From the NCBI GenBank assembly GCA_049325335.1, contig JBMOMC010000038.1:1-64000 (forward strand): 64,000 nt of DNA, read 5' to 3'. The stretch is from Nitrospirota bacterium (GTDB taxonomy: Bacteria > Nitrospirota > Nitrospiria > 2-01-FULL-66-17). Of this stretch, positions 32,143 through 60,608 are shown one piece after another. A program made the position numbers and the translations under genes. How positions within the stretch are numbered: the stretch's first letter is position 1; each line of letters opens with the position of its first letter. The notes beneath the pieces were generated by a model, which did no database searches, was not told where the DNA came from, and was given only the letters and a program-made list of their open reading frames with translations.

Positions 32143-32172
32143 TTGACTTCGCTCATCCTAATTCTCTACATT
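32143..32172 (+). promoter_or_regulatory. putative sigma70 promoter of the giant-protein operon
   Basis: TTGACT-N18-TACATT in an AT-rich patch; this would favour ATG 32196/32202 over GTG 32175 as the start. Confidence 0.45.
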
Positions 32173-32174
32173 TA

Positions 32175-35100
32175 GTGGAAGGGTCTCGGAATTCCATGTT
32201 CATGGCTGGTTCAGTCGGCCCGCGCGTCCGCGGCCATACAGACAGTGGTATATCGTGGCGTGCCCGTCTACTGCCGGGCCTGGCGTTCGCGTGTCTGGTC
32301 GGACTTGGTTTCGGCATTGCAGCGCCTCCATCCGTCGCGGCTGGAACGGATGTCTCGTCTGACGTCGGGAACCGACTAGACGCGGAGCTCCAGACCCTTC
32401 GTGGCACCGCGGATGCGATCCTGAGCGATCTCAGGGCGGGAGGGACCGGCTCATCCGGCTTGGACGCGTTGCGCGGGAGCGCGGACCGGGTGCGCGCGTT
32501 GGACACGCTCGTGCGCGGTCGGTTCGGTCGCGTCGAGGCCACGCTTCGCGAACATTCCGCGTCGTCAGCGCTCTTGGGGCGCCGCGATGCGGCCGCGGCT
32601 GCGTACGAGGCCGCGGCCGATGCGGTCCTGGCCTCGCTCTCCGCGTTGGACGCCGCGTCCCGTGGGGACCGCGCTGTGCTGACGGGTGTTTTGGAGCGGT
32701 TGATCAACGCATTGGCCGACGTGACGCCGTCCCAGGAAGACCGACGTCCGCTTGGGATCGATCTGCCGTATCATCCGCTCGACCTGCCCACGGTCTCGCC
32801 GCGCAGGACCCCGACTGTAACGCCGGCATATCTTGCCGCATCGTTAGTCGCCCCGGCGCCCGAAGACCTGGCGGGGACGACGTCCGATGCCGTTGCGGCG
32901 CAGGCCGAGGCCTCCGGATACGATCCCATCGCCTTGTTTGAGTTCGTCCAGCAGTCCATCGACACCGAGTTTTACGACGGCGTGCTCAAGGGCGCGGACG
33001 GCGCGCTGCGCGAGCGGCGCGCCAATGACGCGGATCAAGCCGTGCTGCTGGTCGCGCTGCTGCGCGCGGCCGGGACGCCCGCGCGGTTCGTGCACGGCGT
33101 CATCGAAATTTCGGCCGAGCAGGCCGCGGCGTGGACCTCCGTGGGGTCTGCGCAACGCGCCGCCGACCTCTTTGGGCGCGCCGGGATTCCGTACGAGCCG
33201 GTTCGGCGCGGCGGGGGCATCGGCGCGTTCAGGATCGAGCACACGTGGGTGGAAGCCTACGTGTCCTACGGCAACTACCGCGGCGCGCCGTTGGACACCG
33301 GGGGCAAGGCGTGGGTTGCGCTCGACCCGTCGTTCAAAGCCTATCGGTACGAAACCGGCCTCGACGTCCTTGGGGAGATGGGATTCAGCGCCGATGCCTT
33401 GGCCACGGAGTACTTAGCGCAGCCGCAAACGATGGATCCAGTGGCCGTGTTACGCGCGCGGATCACCGAGTATCTGACCGCGAATCGGCCGGGCGCGTCG
33501 ATCGACCAGGCCATGGGCCGCCGGGTGTTGGACGAGCCGCGCGCGGGATTGCTGCCGAACACGTTGCCGTACGCCACCGTGGCCGTGACCGACGAATTTG
33601 CGGCCCTGCCTACCGAGCGGACACATCGCGTGCGTGTGCGCGCGGCCGCGGATAACGGGGACGCGTTCGACGTGACGTTGCCCGCGTCGGAATTCGTCGG
33701 GCATCGCATCACGCTCTCGTATGTGCCCGCCACGGTCGAGGACCATGTCGCGGTCAACGCGTTCTTGCGGCTGGACAACACGCCCGCGTACTTGGTGGCG
33801 CTGCGCCCAGTGCTCAAGGTGGACGGGGTGGTGCGCGCGGCCGGAGAGCGGTCGGTCCGGATGGGCGCATACCATGACCTGACCATTGAACTGCACGGGA
33901 CGCGCGGGTCCGCGGAAACCACGGACTCCTTGCTCGCGGGGGGGTACTACGCGCTGGGATTCGGCTCCCACGCGGCCGCGTACACGCCGTCGTCGGAGCC
34001 GTCCCCCCGGGACACCGAGCCGCCGGCCGGCGACCTGTTGTTCCAAATGGCCTCCGAGTACCTTGACGCCTGGAATCGGGCCGAGGAGGATTTGGCCGCG
34101 ATGACGCGCGTGGCCGTGGTGCGGCCGCTGCCGTCGGTTGTGATGGTGGGCAGCGTGTACGGCCGGACAGTCCTGTTCGGTCGTCCCCAGACCGTTGATT
34201 GGCGCGGGGTGTTTGTGGACGCCAATTTTCGCGCGAGCGACGCGATCCCCGCGGGCAACGACGCGACACGCGCGGGGGCGTTCTTACGATTGTCCGGTCT
34301 GGCCGGCTCCGTGCTTGAGCGCTCGGTGTTGGCCCAGAAACTCGGGGCCGAGGCCGTCTCCACGGTGTCACTGATTCAGTCCGCGCGCGCAAACGGGGAG
34401 CCAATCGAAGAGATCGACGCGTCGAACGCGTCGGTCATCGCGTCGCTGAGTACGTCGGACAACGTGAAGGCCGAGGTGACCGACGCGGTGAATCGCGGCT
34501 GGCGCGTGACGATTCCGCGGTCGGATCTGATCCGCGATCGATTCCACGGCATCGGCTACATCGTGCGCGATCCCGCGTCAGGCGGCGCCGGGTATTTCAT
34601 TTCCGGCTCATTGGCGGGCGGGATCACCATCAACGACGCGCGAAATTGGGTGGAGCAGGCGTACGCCGATGCGCTCCATTTTGCGTACACGCCGCCGCCC
34701 AATCCGGATCCCACCGCCGCGCTATACATCTTTAAGGTCGCCATCAGCAACAACCAGAACGGAATCGCGGGCGAGCCCGCGGAGAGCCCGTTGTTTGTGT
34801 GGGTGCTCGACCGGGACGGGCGGCCGGTGATGGGCGCGGACGTGACGTTCCAGATCGTCTCCGGGGGCGGCCAATTCGACGCGGCGGGCGCGCAGAGCGT
34901 GACCGCGACGACGGACTATCTCGGCATCGCGGCCGCAACGCCGATCTGGGGCCGTCACACCGCCGACGCGCCGTTCTACCTGATGGCGAATGCAGGCGAT
35001 CCCCAGCCCACGCAAGTGGGACACAATCTGGTCACCGCCCGGGTGCAGGGTTCGGGGGGGCACATTCCGCTTTCTGCGCCGTTCCAGGCGTTTGCCTACC

Positions 35101-38100
35101 CCGGCGAACCGCACCATATTCGCAAGGTGTTGGGGGAAGGGAATCAATCGCTCGCTGGCACGGCCGCTGGTACGTTGCGGGCGCGAGTGGAAGATCAATA
35201 CGACAACACGATCTCCAATATCGACGTCCTGTTCCGGGTCGTACCGGCCGAACCCCGGGTGGGCGCCGCTCTGCCCTCGAGCGCGCAGAACATGGTCGTC
35301 TACTCCCAAGATCCGCCCTGTCCGAACGAGAATCCCGTGATCGGCGACTGCGGGGGCGTGGCGTCCCTCGCGGTGACCACGTCCGTATTCGGGGCCTCGG
35401 TCGAGACGATCCTGGGCGATACCATTGCGACCAGGTATGGCGTGCAAGCATCGGTGCCGTCCGCGCCCGGGGTGGCCGCCGAGACGTTCGCGCTATTTGC
35501 GGTCGGCCGACGGGATTACGACGCCCCCGGGTACGCGCCGCCCACGCTGATGATGTCGCAACTGTCTCTGGTCAATGACCGCGGCGAGTTGCTCAACAGC
35601 GCCAAGGTCGGGACCTCGTTCGCGCGACCGTTGGGCGTGGCGTTGTACCTGATCGAGGATCGCTTCCTCATGGTCCCGACCGGGGCGCCGTGCGGACCCA
35701 ATGAAACGGACCCGCCGTGTTATGAAGTGCGGTCGTTGGCGACCAGCCGCATCCGTCCCGTCGATATTCAGCGCACGGGGCCGGATATCACATACCCCAC
35801 GGTGACGCCGGACGCAGTTTCGGTTCCGAAACAAAGTGAGACCGCCAATATCGCTTTCAACGCAATTGCCGGTGGTGGCAGTGTGGTCCCACCGGTGCAG
35901 AATGCGCCGGGCCACGGCCTGGGCCAGGGCCGGTACGAGGCCGTGCTGACGGTCGGATCGAATCCCGTGCTCAACCGGGTCGAGGTGGACGCCACCGCAA
36001 CCATTTGGTTGCCGGACATCAACCTGCACGCATCCAGCGCCGCCGGAACCGTGACTCCAAGACTCGTCACCATGCGGCCGGGCCAAGACTTCCTGGGATT
36101 GGTCAACCACGATCCCTTGCAACCCAGATTCGGCGGCAATCCGTTGACCGTCACGCACGAAGTCTTTGGGGTCCGCGCGACCATCCCGACGCCTCCCGTG
36201 GCGTTGATCGGTCCCAGTGGGCTGGTGGCCTTCGACGCGGACGTGAACTACTTGATCGAGCCGGCGGGCTACGCGGCGCAGACCGCGGACGTGGATCTTT
36301 TCGAGGTGAAGACCGGCGCGCCGGATGAGTGGCTCGGATACGTGGTGGGCGACCATGCGTCCGGCGCGGGCGCCGGCACGATTCTCCAGGGCATGTTCTT
36401 CAATCCGGCCAAGCGGTATCGCGCCAAGGTGGTGTTGAACCGAGGCAGCGAGGTTGAGCTCGCCAGCGGCCTGGAATCGCTGGACGCGTACTTGCGCGAG
36501 CCCCTGCGGTTGGATTTCGGGTCCAAGAAGCACGCGGAGGAGCAACACCGACAGAAGAAGGAACGGGATCTGGCCGCGATCTTCCAGGCCGAGAAAGCCG
36601 CGTTGGTCGGCGTGATCCAGCAGGGGCTGATCGAAGGGGCGGCGTGCGGGATTCCCACCGGCGCGCCGATCGCGATTATCGAGCAAGGCAGCGGCGCCTG
36701 TTTTTGGAAGGACAGGTTCGCGACCGACCCGGTGGGCACGTGCGCGGCGTTTCAGCCCGAAGTGAGCGATCACGACTACGAAGTGTTCGTGCCCTCCGCG
36801 TACATGCCGGGCACCGACACCTCGGGCGCGGCGTGTCTGGTCAATCATCTCAACAAGGCCGGGCAAGATTCGGAACTCGCGGACGTGACGTTTTTCCCGA
36901 TGTCGAAGGAGGATTTCGAGCGCGGGCGGCTCAACGTCATGCCGCCGGTCGTGCCGGGCGGATCGGATCCCACCGGCGACCTGGGCCTGGGCCGACAGTC
37001 GCTCCTGCTCAAATGGCTGCTGGAAGGCGAGTACGTCACCGGCATCGCCGGGTTGTCCGTTCCCGCGGTCGGCGGGCAGGTACGGCCGTTGGACGCGATT
37101 CTCGAAGACCTGCGAACCACGCCGTACATGGACGGCGAGCCCACCGGCATCCCGCGGTTGGAAGGCCACGAGTGGGCGGCGCTGCAGGAGTTCAACCTGT
37201 TCAAGTCCGGCGCGCACCTGCGCCTCAAGGGCCAAGCCGTTGATCAACGCAGCGGCCTCTTCGAGCGGCTCCAGAAGGAAGTGCACGACGTGGCCAAGGC
37301 CGGGATCAGGGCCGTGATGGCGCGGCTCGCGACCGACGAGCGCGCGAATCGGCGGCTGTTCATCGCGCGTCCGGAGTACAACTCGGGTGCGGGCTGCCTG
37401 ACCGGGACCGAGGACCCCTCGCGGCCGCGGCCGCCCGCGAGTCTGTTCCCCAAGCGGTGCGACTCGTTCGAGGAGCACGTGGCCTCCACAGCGGTCAAGA
37501 GTCTGCGTGACGGATATGGACTCTTCACGCCCGAACAGACAGCTATGATCTACAACCTGTACCGCGTGAAAGCCGACGCGACGTGCGCCGCCCCCGGCTG
37601 CACCACCCGAATCATGGATGAAGCGGAAGCCAACCGGTTCGTGGCGAGCGCGTACGACTTAATCCGGCAGGTGAGCGCCGACACGGAAGCGATCTACCTC
37701 TCAACGGTCGGCAACGACTCGGCCAACGCGGTCCAGCGCGCGGCCAATTTGTCCACCGCCCGGACCAAGGCCTTGGAGGCGCAAGCCACGGTGAAGCGCA
37801 CGCCCACGACCCGGGTGCTCAACGCCAGCGTGTTGTCGTTCGAGAACGTCGAGGTCGCGCAGGACAGCGACGCTACCAACGGGGTGACGCCCCCCCGGCA
37901 CGTCGTCCCGGTCGTCGATTTCGGCGAGCGATTCCTCGACGTGGCCCGCACCGTGAGCGGCAGCCCGATTCTCGACCCCAACGGCGACGAACAACCCTTG
38001 ATGAAGACCGCGCTCCCGGGCGATCAGACCCGCTACGTGCGAGCCTTGCTCGATCCGAATCATACGATTCGTCAGTGTGAGCCCACGGCCAACTTCACGG

Positions 38101-41100
38101 GTTTTTACGCGCATCCGCTCACGTTCAGCGATCCCGGGACCATTCCGTCGCTGCCGGATCAGCCGCCGTTGCCGGGATCGTTTCCCGCGCCGCCGCAGGA
38201 GTGTCTGGATCATCCGGCCCCGCGCCTGCGCGTGGACAAGACCGTTAATGGGCAACCGGATATCAAAGTGGCGCCCGGGACCGAGGTGTCGATCGTCAAC
38301 AAGGTGACCAACACCGGGGCGGTCCCCCTCACCGGGGTGACCCTCACGGATCTGTTGACGAACAGGACCTACGGGCCGATCTCCTTGGCGCCCGGATCGA
38401 GCCGCGTGTTTCCCGCCGCGCGGTTTACGCCCACGCAATTCGGAAAAGAATTAATCGGTCCCACCGAGGCCGTCGGCTTCATCGCGGCCGGGGGCGTCGT
38501 GCAAGCATGGGACAGCGTGGTGATCGACGTGATGGCGCCGCCGTGCGACAACGCCATCGTGCTATTGAGTCCGGACCCGAATCCGTACAACCCGACGAAC
38601 GGCGATCCGGTGTCCGAGGTCATGCAGGGGGGCTCGTTGTACCGGCATTACCGCGTGCTGGACGCGCGCACCGGGGCGCCCATTGCCACTGCCACGGTCG
38701 GGTTGCTCGTGAACGGTGCGGCCCAGACCGCGCAGACGGACGCGGACGGGTACATGATCCACACGCTCGTTCCGGATGAGACCGATCCCTTGGGACTGAA
38801 GATCGAGGCCGGGGCCATCGGCGCGCCAGGCACGACGGTGCCGGTGGTATTGGTCAGCGTCAACGGCAACCCCAGCACGTGCGGACAGCGCTTTGACGCG
38901 ACGGTGAATCCCCGCGAATTTACCCGCGCGATCAAGGCGGGATCGAGCATGAAGCTGGCGGCTTCGTTCGCCGCGATGACGGTCAACGGCAAAGAAGGCT
39001 TCGGCATGGATCTGAGCCTCGACGGCACGCCGGCCGGGGATACCAAGCTGACCTTCGGTCGCACGAACAACGTGGAACTGGGTGTGGGGGTCAAGGCCAC
39101 CGCGGCCAAATTCCGTGTGAAGTTGATCGGCACGGCGTCGCTGGCCAACGTGGGAGTCAGCGCGGGCGCTTCGGGATTTCTCATGCTGAGCGACAAATAC
39201 GAGTTTCCGTTCCCATTGAATCTGGACAGCACGTTGGCGCTCGGCCACCTGTTCCTCGGGACATTGAGTCTGGCGTCCAACAGCATGAATCCAGCATTGG
39301 GCGGACCAGTCACGGCACGGTTGCTGGACGAGGTCTACAACCGGTTCTTGGGCGTGGACGCGTATCGCGTGTCGTACGGTCCGTCGATGGGGCTCAAGGT
39401 CACGGCGGGAGGGAGCCTCACCGGGCCGGTCGTGAATCTGCAAAGGACCGGCATTCCCTTGCTCCAAGACGTCGGGCTGCGCATCGGGGTGGAGGGATCG
39501 GTGGACGCGGCGGTGACCGCGGCGTTTACCATGAAGCCCCCTAAAAATGAGTTCGTGACCAGCGTGGAGTACAACGCGGCCGCGAACATCTCGGGCGGGT
39601 TGGACGTCGGGAAACTCAGGTCGCTTCCTAATGCCCCCAAGCCGTCCGCGATCGCCAAGACCGTGGATGACGTGAAGTTTCGTTTCAACGGCGGCATTTC
39701 CGGCAGCATCAAGTTCGCGACGACCATCGACACGGCCGCGAGTCCGCTGGAACTCAAAAAAGTGGAGGTGTCGATCTCCGGCCAGAAAGGCTTCGGGTAC
39801 AAACTGCCGTTCGGTCAGCAAGCCGGGGCTGACGTGTCGGCGCTCGGGTACACCGACTCTACCGAGTTCGCGGTGACCGACCCGGCCAAGATCGATGAAG
39901 CGGTCACGACCATCACCACCATTCAACTGCTCGCCCCGCTGTACGCGAGCCCGGTCACCACGGAACTGATCGGCCCCTCGTTGTTGGGCGAGCGGATCGC
40001 GGAACTGGTTCGTCTGTTCGACCAGTATGAAGACAAGCGAGAGCGAGGACAAGGCGTGGAACTCCCCGTGGGCTTGGAAGGCGCGCTGTTCGGAACCGGG
40101 CTGGAGGGCGAAGTGGCGCTCAAGTTGGATCGGAGCGTTGAGTACGCGACGGAAAAGGGCGCGGTGCGGGACGGACAGAAGTTCAAACTCGAAACCTACG
40201 ACAAGAATGATCCGCTCGTGCCTCCATCAGGCATGCCGGTGGTCGAGTCGATTGTGGATCAAATGATCTCGGCCATCAGCCATGAAATCGTCTCCGCGTT
40301 CACGCGCGTGGTGAGCGCGATCGTGCCCAATCCCACGAATCCGTTCTCGATGATTCCCGTACGATTTTCGCCGTCGGGCGCGGATCTCACGATCAACAAT
40401 GCGGCCGAGCCGCAAGCCTTTAACGTGGACTTATTGGCCTACAAGTATCAGCCGATCTCCGGGCCGGTGGGGCCCATTGTTCAGGATCCGTCGGACGCCG
40501 CCGGGCCCGGCGACAAGCCGCACTTCGGGGTGGGCGGATTTTTCCAGTACGGCCCGTATGGGAAAACGCTGGCCGCGGCCGCGACATTGACCATTTATTA
40601 CGAGCCGTACGAGGTGGCGAGCCTGGATGAGTCGTCGCTGGCCATCTATAAGTGGAACACCGCGGCGTTGGACTGGGAGTATGTGGGCGGGACGGTTACG
40701 CCCATCGGGACGGGACTCTTCGGCAGCGTGACCGCGCAAATCAATGCGCTGGGCCTGTACACCCTGGCGCCGGCCATGCCCAGCGGGAAATTCGGGTACA
40801 CGGCGACGGCCACGGTCTCGTCCGGCCAGCCCGCGACCACGACGGTCCATTACACCAGTCAGTCGCTCCGGATGAATCACGGCGGCGCGGTGCCCGACGG
40901 CACACTGTTCACCGTGCTCACGTCGTGGCCGGATGCCAGCGCCGTGGTGCCGTTCGGGACCGTGACTACGCCGGATGAGGACCTGTTGACCGACGGTGTG
41001 CAGGTGCGGTCTCAGAGCGGGGTGATCCGGTTCACCGCGGAGTATCCGGGCGCGTTTGGGGCGGTGCGCGTGTTGGCGTATCCGACCGAAGGCACGGCGT

Positions 41101-41129
41101 TCGGTGAACAGATGATGGTGTACCCATGA
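32175..41129 (+). CDS. ~2980-aa secreted protein with transglutaminase-like domain and multiple Ig-like domains
   Basis: Signal-like segment; TGase-fold motifs ANDADQA..LVALLRAAG.PARFV.G, HTWVE, W..LDPS; Big_1-like (V.D.DGRPV.GA.VTF) and DUF11-like (VTNTG.VPLTGVTLTD) domains. Confidence 0.85.
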   Translation: MEGSRNSMFMAGSVGPRVRGHTDSGISWRARLLPGLAFACLVGLGFGIAAPPSVAAGTDVSSDVGNRLDAELQTLRGTADAILSDLRAGGTGSSGLDALRGSADRVRALDTLVRGRFGRVEATLREHSASSALLGRRDAAAAAYEAAADAVLASLSALDAASRGDRAVLTGVLERLINALADVTPSQEDRRPLGIDLPYHPLDLPTVSPRRTPTVTPAYLAASLVAPAPEDLAGTTSDAVAAQAEASGYDPIALFEFVQQSIDTEFYDGVLKGADGALRERRANDADQAVLLVALLRAAGTPARFVHGVIEISAEQAAAWTSVGSAQRAADLFGRAGIPYEPVRRGGGIGAFRIEHTWVEAYVSYGNYRGAPLDTGGKAWVALDPSFKAYRYETGLDVLGEMGFSADALATEYLAQPQTMDPVAVLRARITEYLTANRPGASIDQAMGRRVLDEPRAGLLPNTLPYATVAVTDEFAALPTERTHRVRVRAAADNGDAFDVTLPASEFVGHRITLSYVPATVEDHVAVNAFLRLDNTPAYLVALRPVLKVDGVVRAAGERSVRMGAYHDLTIELHGTRGSAETTDSLLAGGYYALGFGSHAAAYTPSSEPSPRDTEPPAGDLLFQMASEYLDAWNRAEEDLAAMTRVAVVRPLPSVVMVGSVYGRTVLFGRPQTVDWRGVFVDANFRASDAIPAGNDATRAGAFLRLSGLAGSVLERSVLAQKLGAEAVSTVSLIQSARANGEPIEEIDASNASVIASLSTSDNVKAEVTDAVNRGWRVTIPRSDLIRDRFHGIGYIVRDPASGGAGYFISGSLAGGITINDARNWVEQAYADALHFAYTPPPNPDPTAALYIFKVAISNNQNGIAGEPAESPLFVWVLDRDGRPVMGADVTFQIVSGGGQFDAAGAQSVTATTDYLGIAAATPIWGRHTADAPFYLMANAGDPQPTQVGHNLVTARVQGSGGHIPLSAPFQAFAYPGEPHHIRKVLGEGNQSLAGTAAGTLRARVEDQYDNTISNIDVLFRVVPAEPRVGAALPSSAQNMVVYSQDPPCPNENPVIGDCGGVASLAVTTSVFGASVETILGDTIATRYGVQASVPSAPGVAAETFALFAVGRRDYDAPGYAPPTLMMSQLSLVNDRGELLNSAKVGTSFARPLGVALYLIEDRFLMVPTGAPCGPNETDPPCYEVRSLATSRIRPVDIQRTGPDITYPTVTPDAVSVPKQSETANIAFNAIAGGGSVVPPVQNAPGHGLGQGRYEAVLTVGSNPVLNRVEVDATATIWLPDINLHASSAAGTVTPRLVTMRPGQDFLGLVNHDPLQPRFGGNPLTVTHEVFGVRATIPTPPVALIGPSGLVAFDADVNYLIEPAGYAAQTADVDLFEVKTGAPDEWLGYVVGDHASGAGAGTILQGMFFNPAKRYRAKVVLNRGSEVELASGLESLDAYLREPLRLDFGSKKHAEEQHRQKKERDLAAIFQAEKAALVGVIQQGLIEGAACGIPTGAPIAIIEQGSGACFWKDRFATDPVGTCAAFQPEVSDHDYEVFVPSAYMPGTDTSGAACLVNHLNKAGQDSELADVTFFPMSKEDFERGRLNVMPPVVPGGSDPTGDLGLGRQSLLLKWLLEGEYVTGIAGLSVPAVGGQVRPLDAILEDLRTTPYMDGEPTGIPRLEGHEWAALQEFNLFKSGAHLRLKGQAVDQRSGLFERLQKEVHDVAKAGIRAVMARLATDERANRRLFIARPEYNSGAGCLTGTEDPSRPRPPASLFPKRCDSFEEHVASTAVKSLRDGYGLFTPEQTAMIYNLYRVKADATCAAPGCTTRIMDEAEANRFVASAYDLIRQVSADTEAIYLSTVGNDSANAVQRAANLSTARTKALEAQATVKRTPTTRVLNASVLSFENVEVAQDSDATNGVTPPRHVVPVVDFGERFLDVARTVSGSPILDPNGDEQPLMKTALPGDQTRYVRALLDPNHTIRQCEPTANFTGFYAHPLTFSDPGTIPSLPDQPPLPGSFPAPPQECLDHPAPRLRVDKTVNGQPDIKVAPGTEVSIVNKVTNTGAVPLTGVTLTDLLTNRTYGPISLAPGSSRVFPAARFTPTQFGKELIGPTEAVGFIAAGGVVQAWDSVVIDVMAPPCDNAIVLLSPDPNPYNPTNGDPVSEVMQGGSLYRHYRVLDARTGAPIATATVGLLVNGAAQTAQTDADGYMIHTLVPDETDPLGLKIEAGAIGAPGTTVPVVLVSVNGNPSTCGQRFDATVNPREFTRAIKAGSSMKLAASFAAMTVNGKEGFGMDLSLDGTPAGDTKLTFGRTNNVELGVGVKATAAKFRVKLIGTASLANVGVSAGASGFLMLSDKYEFPFPLNLDSTLALGHLFLGTLSLASNSMNPALGGPVTARLLDEVYNRFLGVDAYRVSYGPSMGLKVTAGGSLTGPVVNLQRTGIPLLQDVGLRIGVEGSVDAAVTAAFTMKPPKNEFVTSVEYNAAANISGGLDVGKLRSLPNAPKPSAIAKTVDDVKFRFNGGISGSIKFATTIDTAASPLELKKVEVSISGQKGFGYKLPFGQQAGADVSALGYTDSTEFAVTDPAKIDEAVTTITTIQLLAPLYASPVTTELIGPSLLGERIAELVRLFDQYEDKRERGQGVELPVGLEGALFGTGLEGEVALKLDRSVEYATEKGAVRDGQKFKLETYDKNDPLVPPSGMPVVESIVDQMISAISHEIVSAFTRVVSAIVPNPTNPFSMIPVRFSPSGADLTINNAAEPQAFNVDLLAYKYQPISGPVGPIVQDPSDAAGPGDKPHFGVGGFFQYGPYGKTLAAAATLTIYYEPYEVASLDESSLAIYKWNTAALDWEYVGGTVTPIGTGLFGSVTAQINALGLYTLAPAMPSGKFGYTATATVSSGQPATTTVHYTSQSLRMNHGGAVPDGTLFTVLTSWPDASAVVPFGTVTTPDEDLLTDGVQVRSQSGVIRFTAEYPGAFGAVRVLAYPTEGTAFGEQMMVYP

Positions 41130-41995
41130 GGGAGCGGAGCGTGATGACCGGACAGTGGATCTGGCGCGTCGCCTTGGCCGCGATCGTCCTGCTGGGGGTG
41201 GCGGATGTGCGAGCGGCGGTGGCGGAGCGTACGGGACGGGCGGTGGCGGAGGTCGGGAATCAGTCCATCGCGGTGGAGACGTTTGAAGCACGCCTGGCCG
41301 CGGAACGCAAACGGGCGGTGGCGGAGAATCGGGTCGACGCGTTCGGCTCGCCCGCTAAACGGAAACTGCTCGATCAATTGGTCGAGACCAAGCTGTTTGC
41401 GATCAACGCGCGTGCCGCCGGGCTGGATCAGCGGCCCGACGTGAAGCGCAAGATCGAAGAGGCGGTGGACGATGTGCTGGCGCGAGCCATGAGGGACGAT
41501 GTGGCGGCGTCCCTTGATCTCAGTCAACCGGCTCTTCGCGCCTATTACGACGCGCATCCCGGCGAGTTCGAGGTGCCTGGACGGGTACGGGCGCGTCACG
41601 TGGTGGTCAAGACGCGCCCCGAGGCCGTGGCCCTGCTTGGGAAGTTGAAACGGGGCGCGGACGTTGCGGCGTTGGCGCGGGAGCAAAACATCGACTCCAC
41701 GCGCGAGAGCGGGGGCGACCTGGGCTGGGTGAAGCGCGGCGTGATGGTGGCGCCGTTCGAGACCGCGTTGTTCGCATTGCACGCGGGCGAGCTCAGCCCG
41801 GTGGTACAGACCTCCTACGGGTTTCATGTGATCAAGGCCGAGGAAATCGAATCACCCAAGCCCAAGCCGTTCGACGCGGTTGCGGGGGAAATTCGTGAGA
41901 CGCTCATCGCGAAGGACGTCGAGCGGTTGCGGGCCGAGTTGGCGACGCGTCACCGGGTCACGGTTCACGAAGAGGCACTCAAATCCATCCGCTGA
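41126..41995 (+). CDS. secreted parvulin/PpiC-type peptidyl-prolyl isomerase (PrsA/SurA-like)
   Basis: Signal peptide; VRARHVVV, GGDLGW..RG.MV.PFE.ALF, PVVQTSYGFHVIK. Confidence 0.95.
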   Translation: MRERSVMTGQWIWRVALAAIVLLGVADVRAAVAERTGRAVAEVGNQSIAVETFEARLAAERKRAVAENRVDAFGSPAKRKLLDQLVETKLFAINARAAGLDQRPDVKRKIEEAVDDVLARAMRDDVAASLDLSQPALRAYYDAHPGEFEVPGRVRARHVVVKTRPEAVALLGKLKRGADVAALAREQNIDSTRESGGDLGWVKRGVMVAPFETALFALHAGELSPVVQTSYGFHVIKAEEIESPKPKPFDAVAGEIRETLIAKDVERLRAELATRHRVTVHEEALKSIR

Positions 41996-42408: not shown

Positions 42409-45400
42409 TGTCACGCACTGCATTACATAGGGCTCAGGCTCCACGGCGCGCGCTTCGGGCCGCGCTCGCCGGATGGCTCACGGCCGTCTCGTGGCTCACG
42501 TTCGCCGGGTCGGCATCCGCCCAGAGCCTCTATGCCAAAACCGTGGAGGATCGCAGCCACGTCACCGTGATGGAGTTCGGCGGCGTGTACGATCGCCAAC
42601 CCGAGGCCAACCGAACGTATGAACAGGCGGTTCGGGAGGCCATCGCCAAGGAATTCTTCCGCACGCACGCGGACGACTACGATATGCTCGTGACGTTCAC
42701 GCGGTTCCCGTACGCCCTGGGCACGGACGGCGAGGGCCTGCGGGTGGGTGGACGGTACTACAGCATCAAGAACGACGTGCAAGGCATCGGACTCGACCTG
42801 TTCGACTACTCCGCGCAGGCGGGCAGTCGCGGCAGACTGCAGGGCTACATCGACATGGGGCAGATCGACTCACGCGCCGCGGACCCCACGGATCCTTCGT
42901 TCGAGGAGACCTTATCGGTCCTGGCGCACGAGTTCGCCCACCGTTGGTCCGCCTTCGCCGCGTTTCAGGACGCGGGCGGGGCCAGGAGCATGGCGTTGTT
43001 GGGCCGCGACGGCGCGCACTGGAGTTTTCTCCTCAACAGCCAGAACTCGGTGATGTACGGCAACGAGTGGCGGGACAACGGCGACGGCACGTTCACCGCG
43101 GTCGGCCGTTCGCGCAGTTTCTACAGTCCACTGGATCTATATCTGATGGGCATGTTGGACCGCAGCCAGGTCCCGCCGTTTACGCTGATCGACAGCCCGG
43201 ACGTTGAGCCGGATCGTTTGCCCGAGGTCGGCGCCACGATCACGGGCACGGCGCGAACCGTCACAATCGACGACGTGATCGCGGCGCTCGGCGAGCGCGT
43301 GCCTTCGGCGGCCAACGCGCCGAAGCGGTTCAAACTGGGGTTCATCTTCCTGGTGCGTCCAGGCGAAACCGCGGACGGCTTGGAACTGTCTCGCATCAAC
43401 GCGATTCGCGACGGGTTCGCCACGCGGATGGTGATTCTGACGGGCGGGAAGTTGATCGCGGAAGTGTATCCGGACGCATTGCCGGCCGCGCCCGACTCGC
43501 CGCCCGCAGTGCTTCCGCCGTCGAGCGGAGCGCGGAGTACGCCTACAGACCTGGTGCAGGGCGTGGACTGGCTCCTCGCGCAGCAGGCCCAAGACGGCGC
43601 GTTCCGCGATACCCAGGCCACCGCGGTGCGTGATACCGCGAACGTGCTGGACCTGCTGCGCGAGATTCCTTCCACATATCTGTCGCATCAGCGCGGCCTG
43701 GCGTGGTTGACCTCGCTGACCGCGGCGGACAACGTGGATACGGTGTCGCGCCGAACCCTCGCGTTGTCGCCACAGTACGCGGCGCCTGACGCCACGTTCC
43801 TGATCGAAGCCGAGAACGCCTTGGGAGGCTGGGGCTTGCGGCGCGGGTATCTCAGCGACCCGCTCGACACGGCCTTGGCCTTGCGCGCGTTGGCGGACGT
43901 GGGTCAGGCGTCCGGCCTGCTCGGCCGCCGGATCGATGTGGAGATTCGCGGCACGCGCTACCTCGGGGTTCAGCCCGATATCGGTCTGCTCCTGTCGACG
44001 CAAAACGAGGACGGAGGCTGGGGCCTCAAACCCGGCGCGTCCAGCTCGATTCTCGCCACCGCCGCGGTCATGCGATTGGGCGAGCGTTACGCCGACTCGC
44101 ACCTGAATGCGGCGTTGGCGTCCGCGTTCGCGTGGTTGTCCGCGCAACAACGTGCCGACGGCGGATTCGGCGACCACGCCAGCACGCCTTATGAAACCGC
44201 CGAGGCCGCGCTGATCCTGCTGAAAACCACGTTCCCCAAAGCGAGCCTGATCGCGGCGCTCGACTATCTGCGCGGCACACAACTCGCGGACGGGAGTTGG
44301 AACGAGAGCGTGTACCAGACCGCGTTGGCGATCCGCGCGCTGAAGACCGCCGAACTGCCGAACGCGTCGGTAAGCGCGTCGCAGATCGTCATGATGCCCG
44401 CGAGTCCGGTCGAGGGGCAAGCGGTCGCGCTCCGCGTCCACGTGGCGAACGACGGGGTTCAAGAGTTCCGCGATGTGGTCGTGCGGATCTTCGACGGCGA
44501 CCCGGCCGCGGGCGGCGCGCTGATCGGGAGCGACGTGACGATCCCCCTGTTGCCGCCCCTGGCCCAGGTTCCCGTCGAGGTGGTCTGGGACACCACGGGA
44601 TTGGCTGGCGAGCACCGGATCGTGGTCGTGGTGGACCCGGACAACGCGATCGTGGAGTACAACGAGGCGGATAACCGCGCCGAGAAGACGATCGTGGTTC
44701 GCACGCCGCCGGTGGAACCGGACCTAGCGGTCGTGACCGCGGATCTCGCGTTCTTGCCGGTGTTCCTGCAGACGATTCCACAGTCCGAGATCTTGTCCGT
44801 CCGCGTCACCAACAACGGCCAGACCGCGGCGAGCGGGGTCGTGCTCCGCGTGTACGACGGCGATCCCGCGACGACCGGCGTTCAGGTCGGCGAGACGACG
44901 GTTGACGTGCCGGGTCGCGGCCATGCCCCCGCGTCGGTGTCGTTCGATGTCACGCGAACCGGCAGCCACCGGTATTGGGTGGTGCTCGATCCGACCAACG
45001 CCATCGTCGAAGCCGACGAGACCAACAACCGGGCGGCCATCACTTTGCCGGTGCAGAGCACGCTCGACTTCTTCGTGAACCCGGCCAGCGTGACATTGTC
45101 GCAAAGTCCGATCGCGCTCGGTACGAATCTGGTGGTGTCCGCCACGGTCGGCAACTCCGGAACCACGGACGCCTTCGGCGTGCAGCTTCGGGTGAGCCTG
45201 GACGATCCGGCCGGAGCGATCGACCTGGGCACGCAGACACTCGACCTGCCGTCCGGCGCCATGCGACCCGTATCCATCACGTGGCGCACGAGCCGGGCGG
45301 TCACCGGAGCGCCGGTGGTGATACGGATCGACGCGGATGACCGGTTCCCGGAAAACTCCGAGGCGAACAACGCGGCGAGCGTTCCGCTGACCGTGCAAGG

Positions 45401-60400: not shown

Positions 60401-60608
60401 CCCGAAGGTAAAATTCACGTACGACTACGCGCCAAAGGAAGATGGGGGAAAGACCGTCACCTGGACCGCGACGGTCACGGTGGCCGGAGATATCGACCTA
60501 GTCAACAACACGGCCGGACCGGACCACACCAGGGGCAAGAGCTGTCAGCCCGATAAGCCACACGATCGTGACAAGGACCAATCAACCGATCATCACGAGA
60601 AATGGTAG
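42408..60608 (+). CDS. ~6066-aa giant secreted multidomain surface protein (HExxH peptidase-like, prenyltransferase-like alpha toroid, CARDB, FlgD-Ig, TolB-like propellers, FN3, PKD)
   Basis: Signal peptide (..SASA|Q); HEFAH; Q..DG[GS]W repeats; E..E.NN CARDB ends; four FSPN.DG motifs; WSPDG/SPDG repeats; FN3 W....GY.VYR repeats; ANAGPDQ PKD repeats. Confidence 0.92.
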   Translation: MSRTALHRAQAPRRALRAALAGWLTAVSWLTFAGSASAQSLYAKTVEDRSHVTVMEFGGVYDRQPEANRTYEQAVREAIAKEFFRTHADDYDMLVTFTRFPYALGTDGEGLRVGGRYYSIKNDVQGIGLDLFDYSAQAGSRGRLQGYIDMGQIDSRAADPTDPSFEETLSVLAHEFAHRWSAFAAFQDAGGARSMALLGRDGAHWSFLLNSQNSVMYGNEWRDNGDGTFTAVGRSRSFYSPLDLYLMGMLDRSQVPPFTLIDSPDVEPDRLPEVGATITGTARTVTIDDVIAALGERVPSAANAPKRFKLGFIFLVRPGETADGLELSRINAIRDGFATRMVILTGGKLIAEVYPDALPAAPDSPPAVLPPSSGARSTPTDLVQGVDWLLAQQAQDGAFRDTQATAVRDTANVLDLLREIPSTYLSHQRGLAWLTSLTAADNVDTVSRRTLALSPQYAAPDATFLIEAENALGGWGLRRGYLSDPLDTALALRALADVGQASGLLGRRIDVEIRGTRYLGVQPDIGLLLSTQNEDGGWGLKPGASSSILATAAVMRLGERYADSHLNAALASAFAWLSAQQRADGGFGDHASTPYETAEAALILLKTTFPKASLIAALDYLRGTQLADGSWNESVYQTALAIRALKTAELPNASVSASQIVMMPASPVEGQAVALRVHVANDGVQEFRDVVVRIFDGDPAAGGALIGSDVTIPLLPPLAQVPVEVVWDTTGLAGEHRIVVVVDPDNAIVEYNEADNRAEKTIVVRTPPVEPDLAVVTADLAFLPVFLQTIPQSEILSVRVTNNGQTAASGVVLRVYDGDPATTGVQVGETTVDVPGRGHAPASVSFDVTRTGSHRYWVVLDPTNAIVEADETNNRAAITLPVQSTLDFFVNPASVTLSQSPIALGTNLVVSATVGNSGTTDAFGVQLRVSLDDPAGAIDLGTQTLDLPSGAMRPVSITWRTSRAVTGAPVVIRIDADDRFPENSEANNAASVPLTVQGSTAPNLRVAYQDLVVSAPTDQGGTATISVPVSNNGFADATNVDVVFYEGAPEAGGVAIGATQRITSLAPGAQTLVSTTWGPIQAAGTRLITVVVDPVNALSEFDEEDNSAFVTAIVRSRPDLSVTGASLAFSPAFPRAGDVVAITASVSNLGDQPASNVRARFFDGDPASGGAQIGTDQVIATIPGLGQGQVQAAYTASDLGTRAIWVQVDPLNEIVEQSEANNNASKTLGVQDASLYFSNVYFSPNGDGVQDSTDLFFRLDGAQSVSSVRILNRHGGLVQTASMPTPAPSSGSVPWDGTDDLGKVVADGEYTFVLVAPDGRDLASARAVVDNNALSVMDAFGTKYLLENNLTCQRRILIGDGYVVPYYEAGWLADDTGLVTWVPTMAVTTFYHWSIFGTYTIYAFSEEPVGVYVTAPDGASRRVTPDSWAIHQPAGDGTQILDVKISPDQQKVLIATYRYRINGYPYGGYNQFQVTSPVEYWVVNIDGSGLVRVVSASGSTATAQWAPDSTKFLFYNYDRNSADHANIHIVAADGSGETSFVWRDPAINDQSFNHAAWSKDGSRVLYSVLDVQPATAPVYANRVYAVNPDGTGKVVVGTSEIYGFGNLYGVIWLANDRFAMPTQGVMTPDGYFTYGNMEYGLWLFSTTGDAPQPLTPGISNISGEIAPSPDQRSIAFVGYGCGVNCDGGGNQTSTGIWRVGVEGRPEQVYAPTPDNQGIGFLKWSPDGSRLAFREIVITHVEYCDDGEGGEYFCGQGFPAAGIIDLADRSTNLIPLSPPGERYSWSDFQILGLFPEGDTVLIRDPASLTAWSPSVGRQTILPVDAYTWLNDARFTPSGKYLLYGSRRESFDASAPCWKGSYSVDTFAMTSLLNLTAQMTFQRQGSQIVIRGIAEDRNFADYRLEYAPVTAPTAWSPIGEPSEVPVINGELGRWIPPSEGAFFVRLLARDRAGNLAQARKRITWGLAPSITNVTVTPRMFSPNNDGSGDSVTINYLVLGPVHLEFAIYDGADRLVRTITQDHAVIGPASIAWDGRDDAGNFVTDGGYRIHVMDFDFFVTADSTPPSTALAIGNGFHTVPDRYECSDSGGARVCALRPGPLVEEPYRLLTGHAVDAELAHWTLEVGEGVNPSAWTVVDEGTGDAALRDARGNIFTPVQDAVLRRIERSEEAVNRKYRLTAVDQAGNRSVTLADLAPEEVILYAWDSLAVSTERILEQTPGSHLLSIEQTVRAPLSSLVVQYRLLGTTLWVDGAAVSLPGPRVNLPWNNSGLVPGRTYQVRVVGTDLDGRQLVSNMMAIHSNLFVMTGIDDETQVTQGIASLVDTLTEVRLVTAVGAEADIGTSVLTAPIPIDIAIAVNTSKLCEDRIPSIPVRYRGVGASGTVYYSNTLVAQGRCPGLMGGGLGVDGALRLEARTYPAPACGAPTPGSVQITLSSTGLVMDATLAVQSEPNGPLVDIPVSGLPFQTQIDTRTRPEGTYLVRAHGRLFRSDGDTADVSATARFIVDRVAPTAAITYPATNQLLCPIITTDRPVVAIEGIAEDANFDHYEVEFGVGESPTQWSPITQAAGQTIDTRAPRRGILANWDVTGLPGGTYTLRLNVYDQGGNLVCVTVTFTLADPMRVSNVTPDRRLFSPNGDGVYDSIAVAYQLNKTASVQARVYPVVNGQVGAMPVRSLLNNVQEAEGTSSVIWDGATDVGARAPDGVYAVVVTATDACGVIASASAQVEVDATPPDAAIESPLTTDVLPVIVEVLGIATDAHFERYRLEVWPDADPASVRLVAGTGTQVRSGRLGMWNTLGRGGAYTLRLTVTDFAGNHRESTVSVMVSQLDPLISSLAATPALFSPNGDGRLDTVVAEYGLTEDAVVVIDVLDAADAVIGTLVDATALRGIAQANWNGLSDAGAPAPDGTYRIRLRATGVADPTRTQTETVRVVIDATPPTVTPTTPADNTFLASAPVLAGTLSDLNLERYEITYGGNGPRLVFDEGTDNRDGVTFGPLAGLSDGPYSLTWSATDLAGNATERTTAFTLDTTSPAVTLTAPSDNAVVGGTVSNVEVRGSAGDVNLAEWTLRVGAGTDPATWTTLASGTAEPASDLLVTWDTTSVPDGTYTLSLIATDRAGTSAETRRAVVVDNTAPTANLSYPIDGATISTRVNLVGTAMDEHFVSALIEISAGDSGSAFQFAPMAVLSQAVDDDELTSWGTGTWPADGTYTLRLTVQDTVGLTTARSITVHLDTQPPDPPIDLTAQVETRDDVRLIWTASPSLDAIGYYVYRGGARITAAPVVGTTYLDQDLSDGAHRYTVTAVDQGGLESEPSNEARVAVDLTPPAVRIATPTNNAVVGGLVDIRGIAASDDFREYRILVGDGVAPASFTLVRRSPVPVTNGTLSEWDSVGRSESSLVTIRLEAEDLAGNVGMHQIAVTIDNLPPAAPTIISAAATGSDIAVEWSANTETDLAGYLLYNNDVVANVRRIVTGSVTPYLLSATTFADLGLPDGTYRYVVFALDQAGNYSDPSNTMTVTVETRPPRATIVSPATGTRTQTAVTLVATSPDQDVASVQFQFRAEAEVTWTDLGAPRAFTPYQTVWDPTGLPYGSYQFRAVATDVNINTDPAPPEITIIHQDLTPPGAPTGLAARVTESNLDLTWAANNETDLAGYHVYLVVPGSAPMRITPSPVLQPLLNRPDMSDENYTFTVTAVDSSGNESAPSSPAQARVYVVGLSAPEACVTGTETVVTGTGVTPGSVVTLYREDPAGGVLIGTATAGTDGSVQFAGVILPPGPQPLSAQAIDPAGNVSRRAVSTTVELAPIPGAPTGLAAGVAGYDVSLTWDPGGPSVSGYHVFRGATPLVIGTTPIRVAGSPLASSWSNYSYYGPSRAWDESLSTFWIPASWDPAPVWQVDFYQSHLVAGIRLQWYSDASMVYGPISFNVQAWSHDTWITVQTFTGGAPADNVVVFPSPIETIRLRVVMTTWQYSPAYLYLAEAQILGPNYLVTGTSFTDPGVPDGQHAYRLVAVNACSVEGPASELTTAVGDVTAPGAPIDLTATATGSDVALSWTTPADPDVAGYIVYRDVGGAWTRLNPTPVPAMNYVDPVLPNGTYRYRVIAVDTVGNQSAPSNEAQASVNVPLPSGPLALAVTAPLGGGRLDLAWSPGDPTQSILGYRVYRSTVAGGPYVDVGQSVATTYADQTVTNGTTYYYVVRAADAAGNESAASNESSGTPRDTLTPEPPVLLFPTDAAHPIIVTDDVTLVGGTAEPGAVVRLLNEGISLGATTALSAHDVETVALPTFPNGAVAVSAADAQVAYFGWHDGASAYVLTIVNADSGDVTYVAAAADGSSPVFTPDGSRIAYARYDGAGPSGYGLFVYDLGTGSISRESDLPGGMSDPAFSSDGDKLAFSYNSQIWAVDLTAASPDADQVTSEPDSTYTPLWSNDGATIFYITYADTAWALRRLDTATGIATDVAFQVGTSRFSLSRDGATLAYESVQSGRPELWLYDVASGAQTPVPPGDEGRYAPLLAADGASIVYISEPSGEPFQLRRLDPATGASELLATDSGGNPPSWTAGGSLLMPRDNTLLHVRTAGSFQFNGVGLAAGDNVFSAIAIDAAGNPSAPADPITVTLDVSARPDLAVTTADVFAYPLMPTPTERVRVAATIRNAGASAATNVEVVLYALAPSGALAQIGPLRTIPALAPGASSVVSADWLSPATGGRYTLVVVVDPVGTIAEVSETNNTARRDVLLVSAGGAPTVSVRTDHTSYSPSGRVYAFVEAANPGVAADFDLEVTIEDEAGFTAATLLRQRLAGFGYAVRSFAVDWSAVGVYGGAYRARARLVPASGPAIEAAAAFVIETDAQAAASVSTDRSLYQAGDLVSISGLVRNTSVNADLADLVAVIEVIDAGGTVVSRTEQAVARLLLGGQARVQAQWASRPGVLTARLRVMGPSGDLAAASAPFSVLGVVRLEGQVLATPAVIAIGEAFTIAASASNSGTLDANAVALRLRVASAGSQAVVRTFDRVVDLPAGSSRPWQVGSDAAGLAPGAYTVTLEAVGTSVQSLANGALNVADRVAPTVSILTPSAGAFSNADVAFSARAADDASGVDRVEYRVDNGPWTRLPIADLAFGRYATLFPGSPTTEGAHTLTVRAFDNAGNGDETSSSDANPVSVVFTIDVTPPSIDIAGVVDGVTYGSAVTPMIAVTDANLATQSTLLNGAAFTSGTQIGNEGSHVLTVTATDLAGNASSREMRFVISATSNQPPTALDDHYDVQEGAALGSLPPGVLANDLDADDPTSSLVAVMVTPPANGTFTLGSDGGFAYGPNPGFSGTDQFIYRAQDPHGAQSNLAVVTITVIPNPRFTLRASAAPLRGSLVVEPAGTPAICVVGDLCFTYNAGQQVTLTVAAATGFVFTGWTGDCAGQDNPCLLTMDADQNATAQLNAIPAANAGPDQTVQVTNTVTLDGGASTDADGDSLTFEWSVVSRPVGSAAVLSDSIAVNPAFYVDRPGAYVLSLVVRDGVSASEPDTVTITTTNSAPVANAGPDQTARVTDTVRLDGGGSSDVDGDPLAFRWTITAMPLGSLATLSDPSVVAPTFRVDLPGEYVVELVVHDGAVDSAPDGIRISTENTAPVAIARASGPVRVAETVLLDGGDSFDVDGDPLTFRWALTVRPADSAAVLSDATAVAPTFVADVAGAYVAQLIVTDGAVDSPPVTVSVTTENTLPVADAGPDQTVPVGATATLDGAGSFDADGNSLTYRWALTVQPAGSAAVLSDPTAPSPSFVVDRSGTYVAQLIVNDGTVESAPDTVTLTTVNSAPVANAGADQTVAVGSVVQLDGGGSSDADGDALTYQWALTVQPAGSTAAISDPSATRPTFTADQAGTYVAQLMVGDGLLTSSPDTVTITATSAPSPCKDDEDEWDGTDHDKDDHGNGTGHDKNDHKGKYHKGRHQDCDPERRVDLALADLDAPETTNACQQRARIYLTVHNLGNRTEQAMVTLYKDGQLVKVWTDVKISPKKDHGEDPKVKFTYDYAPKEDGGKTVTWTATVTVAGDIDLVNNTAGPDHTRGKSCQPDKPHDRDKDQSTDHHEKW
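58660..60055 (+). repeat. five tandem 93-aa PKD/K319L-like repeats (279-bp period)
   Basis: Equivalent codons at 58674, 58953, 59232, 59511 and 59790, exactly 279 bp apart. Confidence 0.9.

Follow-up and report, generated by a model that had tools for sequence, protein, structure and literature searches.

A run of four overlapping genes in Nitrospirota DNA, two of them encoding giant proteins, raises the question of what such a locus builds and how its products leave the cell. The original prediction took it for a dedicated module in which a periplasmic foldase and a secretin-type adaptor export two giant cargos that form a surface matrix, an adhesin or an antagonistic structure. Here we ask which of its genes belong together and what they are likely to do.

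The window (the whole stretch of DNA that was analysed, 64,000 nt) carries the four co-directional ORFs, by ORF calls. Their coordinates (Table 1) and junctions were re-read as predicted: ATGA at 41126-41129 (genes 1/2), TGATG at 41993-41997 (genes 2/3) and TGATG at 42406-42410 (genes 3/4). Gene 4 would encode 6067 aa if begun at an in-frame GTG (42405). Signal-like N-termini had also been claimed, and a hydropathy scan found an apolar stretch there in 4/4 genes, strongest in genes 1 (residues 32-50) and 2. The promoter-like match ahead of gene 1 was observed once, against 0.2 expected in shuffles; no terminator-like site was found 3′ of gene 4. In GC and GC3 all four genes resemble most neighbours, and nothing in base composition thus points to recent import. 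A sequencing-run contig of even depth is identical to 31584-43592; that run may itself be the source, and the match therefore speaks for assembly consistency only. Matches in sequencing runs X2 and X3 were short scattered pieces only.

Table 1. Genes, domains and sites of the locus, in window coordinates
Feature	Position	Strand	Remarks
Promoter match, sigma-70-like (9/12)	32143..32172	+	weak, putative; just 5′ of gene 1
Gene 1	32175-41129	+	2984 aa, carrier; signal-like N-terminus, swappable tip
Conserved carrier module, residues 95-825	32457..34649	+	homolog and model comparison
Transglutaminase core without catalytic Cys	32907..33329	+	Asp285 at Cys position; His356, Asp384 present
Ig-like linker, two Big_1 stretches	34749..36464	+	common to long toxin-bearing relatives
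Mostly helical domain, residues ~1461-1900	36555..37874	+	conserved; no Pfam/NCBIfam match
Predicted 12-strand outer-membrane-type beta-barrel, residues ~2245-2660	38907..40154	+	structure model
Beta-rich C-terminal domains after barrel	40362..41126	+	conserved; no family match
Gene 2	41126-41995	+	289 aa, PpiC-type PPIase
Gene 3	41995-42408	+	137 aa, GspC-HR/PilP-like beta-domain, signal-like N-terminus
Gene 4	42408-60608	+	6066 aa, giant partner
Zinc-metallopeptidase-like domain	42519..43499	+	HExxH (H174, E175, H178), H204, YLMG motif
Prenyltransferase/squalene-cyclase-like alpha-toroid, residues 383-650	43551..44354	+	predicted gene 1 docking site

The conserved unit is three genes (1, 3 and 4), not four. 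Its hosts are Nitrospirota, Desulfobacterota, Acidobacteriota and beta/gamma-proteobacteria, with two gene orders; cultured ones include Pseudoduganella violaceinigra DSM 15887, Geotalea toluenoxydans JCM 15764, Paucibacter sp. XJ19-41 and Trichlorobacter lovleyi. The gene 1 module forms 3687 clusters at E<=1e-30, and gene 4 homologs form at least 372, which puts the genes well outside what chance would give. Counts of linkage, which overstate independence (the genomes are kin, the searches partly overlap, and loci L222 and L225 are near-identical), are as follows: in a 400-genome sample of the same phylum the carrier module occurs in 38/39 toroid-positive genomes and the toroid in 38/51 carrier-positive ones; the carrier occurs in 17/18 genomes with a peptidase-plus-toroid giant; and it lies on the same contig and strand as the giant in 30 of the 39 loci with at least 8 kb of flank, 12 times within the flank, 3 times 11-14 kb upstream and 15 times 19-25 kb downstream. 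A conserved exported module is borne out. Conservation of the whole four-gene neighbourhood is not: the PPIase stands upstream of a gene 4 homolog in 1/80 loci. The exact four-gene copy was found in an Acidobacteriota genome (locus L121).

The carrier module of gene 1 runs from a helical segment through the transglutaminase fold and an Ig-like domain to a further alpha/beta domain. The transglutaminase fold that had been predicted is there (Transglut_core, E 1e-10; model Z 10.9 to 3isr and 9crn), and what was overlooked is the loss of the catalytic Cys: that column, its register checked against 3isr, holds Cys in 0/36 aligned rows, while His and Asp of the triad are kept in 26/36 and 25/36. 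In 9/36 rows a Cys follows one residue later, which gene 1 of this copy does not have. Gene 1 as a cross-linking enzyme was rejected because the catalytic Cys is absent from all 36 rows. Active transglutaminase-like enzymes, in contrast, use a Cys-His-Asp triad.

The mostly helical domain farther on also precedes variable tips on a second chassis that is free of transglutaminase. An Atlas search with it gave scores <=0.76 only, and the fold searches scarcely covered this domain (residues 1461-1900) and carrier residues ~590-820. Gene 1 itself has no RHS match, unlike many relatives, and its tip no toxin family among Pfam/NCBIfam matches. Both giants had been described as Ig-rich; this holds for gene 4 and for gene 1 in part only.

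Gene 4 begins with a peptidase-like domain and the toroid and continues with CARDB/FlgD/FN3/PKD Ig arrays, beta-propellers and an F5/8-type lectin; no C-terminal anchor motif was seen in it. Its HExxH motif and alpha-toroid had escaped the original prediction. The HExxH is kept in 120/120 homologs, as is the third His, H204. No family for the domain was found in Pfam, NCBIfam or PDB; Reprolysin matches reached only E 0.14-0.2, in 1-2 of 23 members. The toroid has QW-type repeats and a best PDB match at E 1e-41. It shares these repeats with squalene-hopene cyclases, prenyltransferases and alpha-2-macroglobulin; it differs from the cyclase and thioester toroids in its motifs, DxDD occurring in 1/75 rows and the CxEQ thioester in 0/75, and in offering a predicted protein-docking surface instead. 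A terpene cyclase or thioester function of the toroid was rejected.

The chains of genes 1 and 4 probably bind each other, to judge from complex prediction. Carrier module and toroid scored 0.84 together, against 0.00 for the best of 3 controls; this mark was reached by 116/157 solved complexes and 2/215 mismatched pairs, counts that apply only roughly here, where our own alignments were used. The runs share at least 92% of contacts, with partner pLDDT >=85. On the carrier side the predicted interface comprises residues 219-224, 365-381 with the NYRGA loop at 367-371, and 455-467, slightly more conserved than the average (0.58 vs 0.49); on the toroid side there is no difference (0.56 vs 0.56). 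Rather than two parallel cargos, as first proposed, the giants are a carrier of polymorphic-toxin type (gene 1) and the chain predicted to bind it (gene 4).

In type II secretion systems (T2SS) and type IV pili (T4P), the GspC homology region (GspC-HR) and PilP engage secretins. The gene 3 family matches T2SSC in 23/36 members and PilP in 9/36 at E<=0.1, below curated cut-offs where shown. The best 7 PDB profile matches of gene 3 are GspC/OutC/PilP, the best at only E 0.004, and its Atlas model resembles PilP at TM 0.51, which agrees with the PilP/GspC likeness predicted at the outset. A homolog search with the single sequence found only gene 3 itself. The family was collected from the neighbourhoods of gene 4 homologs. 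Of the peptidase-plus-toroid loci with enough flank, 47/54 have a gene 3 no more than 1.5 kb 5′ of the peptidase domain; of the peptidase-only loci, 0/11 do. The likeness to GspC-HR and PilP is in the small beta-domain, by profile and Atlas model. GspC has an inner-membrane anchor, a PDZ domain and a place in the gsp operon, whereas gene 3 has none of these and is encoded beside one substrate; PilP is a lipobox lipoprotein in pilMNOPQ, whereas gene 3 lies outside such an operon and has no Cys, hence no lipobox, its sole N-terminal feature being signal-like.

Secretin genes, which the original prediction had proposed to look for, do occur elsewhere in the genome: a complete gspC-M operon (a full T2SS), with its own gspC at C1:42435-43343, and a pilMNOPQ-like operon on contig C42. 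Among relatives, an orphan GspD lies immediately 5′ of the carrier at locus L269, and in genome G041 a short system adjoins gspC-D-E-F. GspD is above cut-off in only 58/78 system-bearing genomes by raw count. The genome with the exact four-gene copy (G431) has no GspD at E<=1e-60 and has other secretins. Gene 3 is a candidate secretin adaptor for gene 4, and export through a secretin appears likely on these sequence grounds.

The C-terminal tails of carriers are diverse, 140 of them forming 102 clusters. Tips in relatives match LHH, HNH, Tox-GHH, Tox-REase-7, RES, Tle1, lipase, phosphodiesterase and NlpC/P60, the genes behind them SMI1/SUKH, Imm26 and DUF4265; RHS is present in many relatives. 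Also seen are HINT domains, cognate genes in tandem and orphan cassettes of tips. Carriers L139 and L145 end in Ig-only tips, and two beta-proteobacterial loci have an ice-binding-like adhesive gene between both giants. Some short carriers have hydrophobic helical tips that look, by eye, like pore formers. Tips without a family match make up 7/21 of one set and 9/15 of another; since these are so many, the word toxin is backed for a minority only. The family is very probably a polymorphic-toxin platform.

The copy in the window departs from this pattern in its tip. The original prediction had found no autotransporter barrel; residues ~2245-2660 of gene 1 are now predicted to form a barrel, internal and not of the C-terminal autotransporter type, from one model with pLDDT ~35-85 per block and no Pfam match. 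It superimposes on the BrkA beta-domain (3qq2) with Z 17.0, rmsd 3.2 and 211 residues aligned, and apolar faces alternate with Gly/Ser/Thr faces along its strands. Its predicted geometry resembles BrkA, Hbp and AIDA-I as well as CymA, COG4313 and FapF (Z 13-17); compared with these type Va autotransporters and 12-14-strand channels, identity is 4-13% and the gene 1 barrel has helical insertions. A type Va barrel is C-terminal with an aromatic end, whereas this one ends near residue 2660 of 2984, is followed by ~325 residues, and the protein ends in Pro; a classical autotransporter was rejected. A possible ZU5 likeness of the last 250 residues found no support in family and profile searches. 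Foldseek with a 1200-aa tip model returned multi-Ig noise only. Six homologs, 40-43% identical over residues 1430-2984, keep the same tip.

Gene 2 is PpiC-type with a weak SurA-like N-domain and zero Cys, and so is not a lipoprotein. A PPIase follows the barrel-type tip in 8/14 loci and other tips in 0/9; it is cognate to the barrel tip and not part of the core system. Its rarity beside gene 4 and this association led us to reject it as a core component, and with that the dedicated export foldase of the original prediction falls. As 6/14 barrel loci lack it, it is more plausibly a helper than an immunity protein that is essential.

We tentatively favour a three-part platform for toxin delivery, its two chains exported through a secretin; the copy here is likely a surface anchor by way of the barrel tip. 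The linkage of the genes, the Cys loss, the likeness of gene 3 and, in relatives, variable tips beside immunity-type genes are the observed parts of this reading. All four chains would cross the inner membrane via Sec. The carrier would dock on the gene 4 alpha-toroid through its transglutaminase-fold module, and gene 3 would engage a type II-family secretin as GspC-HR and PilP do, so that the folded giant exits. The Ig/propeller/lectin stalk of gene 4 would provide reach and target binding, and its peptidase domain may mature or release the tip. The PPIase would chaperone the barrel, which would be inserted in the producer's outer membrane and hold gene 4 at the surface via the carrier module. 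Among the functions first proposed, an antagonistic one thus fits the family and an adhesin or anchor likely this copy. On the modelled barrel, the anchor role is an even call: it leaves unexplained how 2240 N-terminal residues get outside, and a chain inserted by BAM would need another route than a complex exported by the T2SS, which counts against the favoured reading as a whole. That the tip slot holds mostly effectors in relatives, and that the second chassis carries a lipase-type tip in place of the barrel, favours an effector.

The main rival, unlikely though worth weighing, is that the same platform is here a weapon: the complex would be exported folded, the barrel would insert in a competitor membrane as a pore or an effector that disrupts it, and the PPIase would be a holdase or immunity factor. 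The barrel occupies the slot of toxin-type domains in relatives, is swapped for lipase-type tips, lies away from the C-terminus, unlike autotransporter anchors, and has its PPIase where immunity genes sit; the pore-former-like tips of short carriers point the same way. However, the cognate gene is missing from six of the 14 barrel-tip loci, a PpiC-type foldase is outside known immunity families, and the tip of the six homologs is not diversified. We know of no monomeric 12-strand barrel toxin. It is improbable that the system is instead a surface degradative or adhesive machine (with protease, lipase and phosphodiesterase tips that would serve biofilm or the capture of nutrients) with toxin tips as a side branch: the invariant HExxH, the lectin and propeller domains, the Ig-only, phosphodiesterase and lipase tips and the ice-binding-like gene would suit it, but conflict systems are marked by just such nuclease tips with SUKH/SMI1, Imm26 or DUF4265 neighbours, HINT domains, cognate genes in tandem and orphan tip cassettes, and the tips are extremely diverse. 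A transglutaminase-cross-linked surface layer of two parallel cargos, exported by foldase and adaptor, is very improbable because the catalytic Cys is absent, and with it go the rarity of the PPIase and the polymorphic tips, against which stand only the signal-like N-termini and Ig domains of both giants and the exact copy in Acidobacteriota.

Inactive-transglutaminase toxins were described in 2012 as proteins with a signal peptide, a lost catalytic residue, RHS/Ig repeats and variable C-terminal toxins, entered under Sec/T2SS export, with a domain proposed to anchor the toxin through peptide binding; the table of that paper gives them no signature neighbour genes (Zhang 2012, PMC3482391). Gene 1 shares the signal-like N-terminus, Asp285 in place of Cys and a C-terminus variable among homologs, a likeness drawn from the features described there. 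It differs in that the domain is one part of a module of ~730 aa, linked to a toroid that is predicted to bind it and to a GspC/PilP-like gene, that many members are without RHS, and that a barrel tip and PPIase mark this copy (compare PMC3482391). A precedent for the T2SS route of an RHS antibacterial protein is Bcn-A of Xanthomonas perforans, whose activity is lost in an xpsD (T2SS) mutant; the word transglutaminase is absent from that report, the ORFs accessory to Bcn-A are small, and its passages on the protein name no giant partner (PMC7259588). The original prediction recognised no named system, and our search of the freely accessible literature likewise found none, nor a title or abstract on the partner, adaptor or complex. 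The comparison suggests a known kind, the inactive-transglutaminase polymorphic toxins, with partner, adaptor, and barrel tip with PPIase new here. Possibly this is a widespread, undescribed class of toxin delivery. The dead transglutaminase module would attach the carrier to a giant metallopeptidase-toroid-Ig stalk, and both would exit via a secretin, aided by a soluble GspC-like adaptor of their own that acts as a T2SS specificity factor encoded with its substrate. The exchangeable tip would be a nuclease, lipase, wall hydrolase or monomeric beta-barrel, the last for tethering or target-membrane insertion.

It has long been asked how the T2SS chooses its substrates, which are folded, and GspC-HR is central to the question. 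A stand-alone GspC-like gene that several phyla keep linked to a single giant substrate would allow a direct test of that choice. The toxins of 2012 had no known delivery partner, and the locus gives a candidate with a predicted interface. The findings also suggest that a membrane barrel, together with its chaperone, can take the place of a toxin in the tip slot. As the family is large and its tips mostly unannotated, it may be a reservoir of new antibacterial domains.

Gene 1 of the four-gene unit is a carrier with a swappable C-terminal tip. The carrier module, its first ~820 residues, was found in 3687 clusters at E<=1e-30, and sequences diverge beyond it: 140 tails (best 148 representatives) gave 102 clusters, a count inflated because the library was pre-clustered at 50%. 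Pfam gives gene 1 a Transglut_core match and few others, and the transglutaminase fold is borne out by its model (Z 10.9, rmsd 2.6, 131 aligned to the reference structure 3isr). The original prediction overlooked that the catalytic Cys is missing, its position being occupied by Asp285 when the register is set by alignment to 3isr. Cys stands there in none of 36 carrier rows and one residue later in nine; the catalytic His and Asp are likewise variable.

This carrier type is already in print; Zhang et al. 2012 (PMC3482391) list inactive-transglutaminase polymorphic toxins with Sec/T2SS export, and list no signature neighbours for them. Among 21 tips or cassette fragments scanned, eight matched enzyme or toxin families (LHH, HNH, RES, Ntox10, three hydrolases and a phosphodiesterase, two of them below cut-off), two Stv, two Ig only, two RHS only and seven none; another scan, of 15 tips, gave toxin families in three cases (Tox-REase-7, Tox-GHH and Tle1), HINT only in one, RHS only in two and no match in nine. 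NlpC/P60 was found in two and an M15-like domain in one of 47 short carriers. Genes downstream of tips include SMI1/SUKH (three loci), Imm26 and DUF4265, and relatives also show cognate genes in tandem and orphan tip cassettes. The window's copy works like the polymorphic-toxin carriers but was negative in both the RHS and the toxin-immunity test, and is therefore not filed as a toxin. Tips of Ig domains only occur at loci L089, L094, L136, L139 and L145; behind these carriers lie a ~185-aa lipoprotein-like gene and a ~815-850-aa secreted-looking protein lacking a Pfam match.

The fixed partners of the system are gene 4 and gene 3. On re-reading, the four ORFs, their lengths and their three overlapping junctions agree with the original prediction, as does domain search for gene 2 (a PpiC-type PPIase); it had passed over the HExxH domain and alpha-toroid that open gene 4. 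The domain array of gene 4 in Pfam comprises CARDB, FlgD, FN3, PKD, propeller and lectin, and its homologs form at least 372 clusters of 3,300-7,000 aa. HExxH and His204 of the peptidase are present in all 120 homologs examined, and the domain matched no named family in family or PDB searches. The toroid resembles squalene cyclases, with DxDD in one of 75 rows and the thioester motif in none. No shared C-terminal anchor motif was obvious in 40 C-termini viewed. By eye, Gln begins the likely mature N-terminus of gene 4 and of many homologs; on the opposite strand, ~1.2 kb upstream of gene 1, stands a gene for glutamine cyclotransferase.

Gene 3 is, by its sequence, GspC-HR/PilP-like, as had been proposed: of 36 members compared with family profiles 23 matched T2SSC and nine PilP (E<=0.1), and the seven top PDB matches were OutC, GspC or PilP (best E 0.004). 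It differs in having neither membrane anchor nor lipobox. The 80 titled gene-4 loci, from Nitrospirota, Desulfobacterota, Acidobacteriota and beta/gamma-proteobacteria, comprise 66 with peptidase and toroid, 11 with peptidase alone and three left unassigned; a gene-3 homolog stands directly upstream in 47 of the 54 peptidase + toroid loci whose flank reaches 900 nt, and none of the 11 peptidase-only loci has one there. The HExxH domain without toroid or gene 3 (L137, L151, L157, L160, L162, L180, L182, L183, L186, L187 and L189) is located in most cases close to the C-terminus of other large proteins that look secreted.

As to conservation of the four-gene neighbourhood, linkage of gene 3, gene 4 and carrier held up, while an exact four-gene copy appeared at only one of the 80 loci, L121 of an Acidobacteriota genome; three more contigs probably carry both giants, judging by contigs of identical length in two of the homolog searches. 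Two gene orders occur, carrier-immunity-gene 3-gene 4 and gene 3-gene 4-carrier(RHS)-immunity. The linkage and co-occurrence counts are descriptive, because the genomes are related to one another and the sets share members: the carrier is on the same contig and strand in 30 of 39 gene-4 loci flanked by 8 kb or more (within the flank in 12, 11-14 kb upstream in three and 19-25 kb downstream in 15) and is not so placed in the other nine, and among 400 same-phylum genomes it occurs in 38 of 39 toroid-positive ones, the toroid in 38 of 51 carrier-positive ones, and the full giant (peptidase + toroid) is accompanied by a carrier in 17 of 18. In short systems the carrier has ~1,000 aa, and the toroid protein paired with it lacks the peptidase.

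In the window's genome another carrier and another toroid gene lie at contig ends, and gene 3 is present once. This second carrier has a hydrophobic tip and a small membrane-protein neighbour and directly follows pilMNOPQ-aroK-aroB; the toroid-CARDB gene begins at the end of contig C7, and the ends of C42 and C7 may be adjacent in the genome. Similar ORFs of ~200-340 aa, which we take to resemble REP-associated tyrosine transposases, recur in the gap that separates gene 3 from the immunity-type gene (L122, L127, L130, L148, L149, L159, L197 and L198), which suggests an insertion hotspot. Other neighbours and large ORFs are listed in the table.

Coordinates of features in the window, its genome (G000) and related loci
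Feature	Coordinates	Strand
Glutamine cyclotransferase gene	window 30110-30991	-
MASE1 protein, D-Ala-D-Ala-ligase-like ATP-grasp protein and adjacent HExxH-containing protein, downstream of the four genes; no link with the module noticed	window 60670-63916	-
Second carrier	G000:C42:667-4233	
Toroid-CARDB gene	G000:C7:419424-426263	
~9,010-aa ORF, the genome's largest; small genes with secreted-looking products follow	G000:C7:191516-218548	-
pAdhesive_15 gene (ice-binding-like adhesive domain) between gene 4 and carrier, beta-proteobacteria	L201:12114-12974	
pAdhesive_15 gene, likewise	L211:3136-4014	

Modelling supports binding of carrier to toroid. The predicted complex of carrier residues 95-825 and toroid residues 383-650 scored 0.84 (best of three controls 0.00); the score mark is attained by solved complexes in 116 of 157 cases and by mismatched pairs in 2 of 215, rough figures here because our own alignments were used. 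Runs concur in at least 92% of contacts, with partner pLDDT at least 85. The predicted interface on the carrier consists of the NYRGA loop behind the catalytic His and residues 455-467; conservation is slightly raised on the carrier side and not on the toroid side. No similar complex was found among PDB matches of carrier or toroid, nor, in searches of an open-access library, any description of the toroid partner, adaptor, complex or barrel tip.

The original prediction, which reported no autotransporter barrel, overlooked a predicted membrane-type barrel in gene 1. The tip model of this gene (mean pLDDT 79, barrel lower) combines a helical domain and Ig domains with twelve long strands, and this modelled twelve-strand region matches the outer-membrane barrels BrkA (Z 17.0, rmsd 3.2, 211 aligned), CymA (16.6) and Hbp (16.5). 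In 24 sequences one face of the barrel strands is L/A/V/F/I-rich and the opposite face 49% G/S/T; Ig strands differ. Over residues 1430-2984, six close homologs show 40-43% identity, and five of the six are full-length proteins that include the transglutaminase module; ~20 proteins without a Transglut_core match show 26-35%. In such relatives without the module the shared helical domain precedes a barrel-type tip or others, e.g. lipase-type. A PPIase follows barrel-type tips at 8 of 14 loci (two near-identical) and other tips at 0 of 9, five of the 28 loci counted having no downstream sequence; among the 80 gene-4 loci it occurs at L121 only. We favour, at a shade under an even chance, a tip that serves as an anchor aided by the PPIase. 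Its weak point is topology, the barrel being internal with large domains at both ends, and the main rival, a membrane-attacking tip, is rather unlikely. A classical autotransporter was rejected because ~325 residues stand behind the barrel.

Another two-giant system, which lacks the transglutaminase module, was also seen (L222-L241, L254-L261; P0129-P0149). Its first giant, of PKD/Big_5 type, shares the helical domain and carries a variable tip, of barrel, lipase or unknown type; next come a small cognate gene and a CarboxypepD/Big_5 giant of 2,000-3,000+ aa.

Secretin genes, sought elsewhere in the window's genome as had been advised, comprise those of a complete T2SS operon and of a PilQ operon, besides two further secretins. 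By raw count, 58 of the 78 genomes that bear the system have a GspD above the cut-off. Most Acidobacteriota, including the L121 genome, lack a strong GspD match, and all five such genomes tested have other secretins. An orphan GspD lies directly ahead of the carrier at L269, and in genome G041 a short system adjoins gspC-D-E-F. Bcn-A of X. perforans, an RHS protein whose antibacterial activity is reported to depend on the T2SS (PMC7259588), offers a precedent.

Most likely, gene 3 would present the folded gene 4 protein to a secretin. The carrier would dock onto the toroid of gene 4, whose stalk would supply reach and binding, and the peptidase would mature or release the tip.
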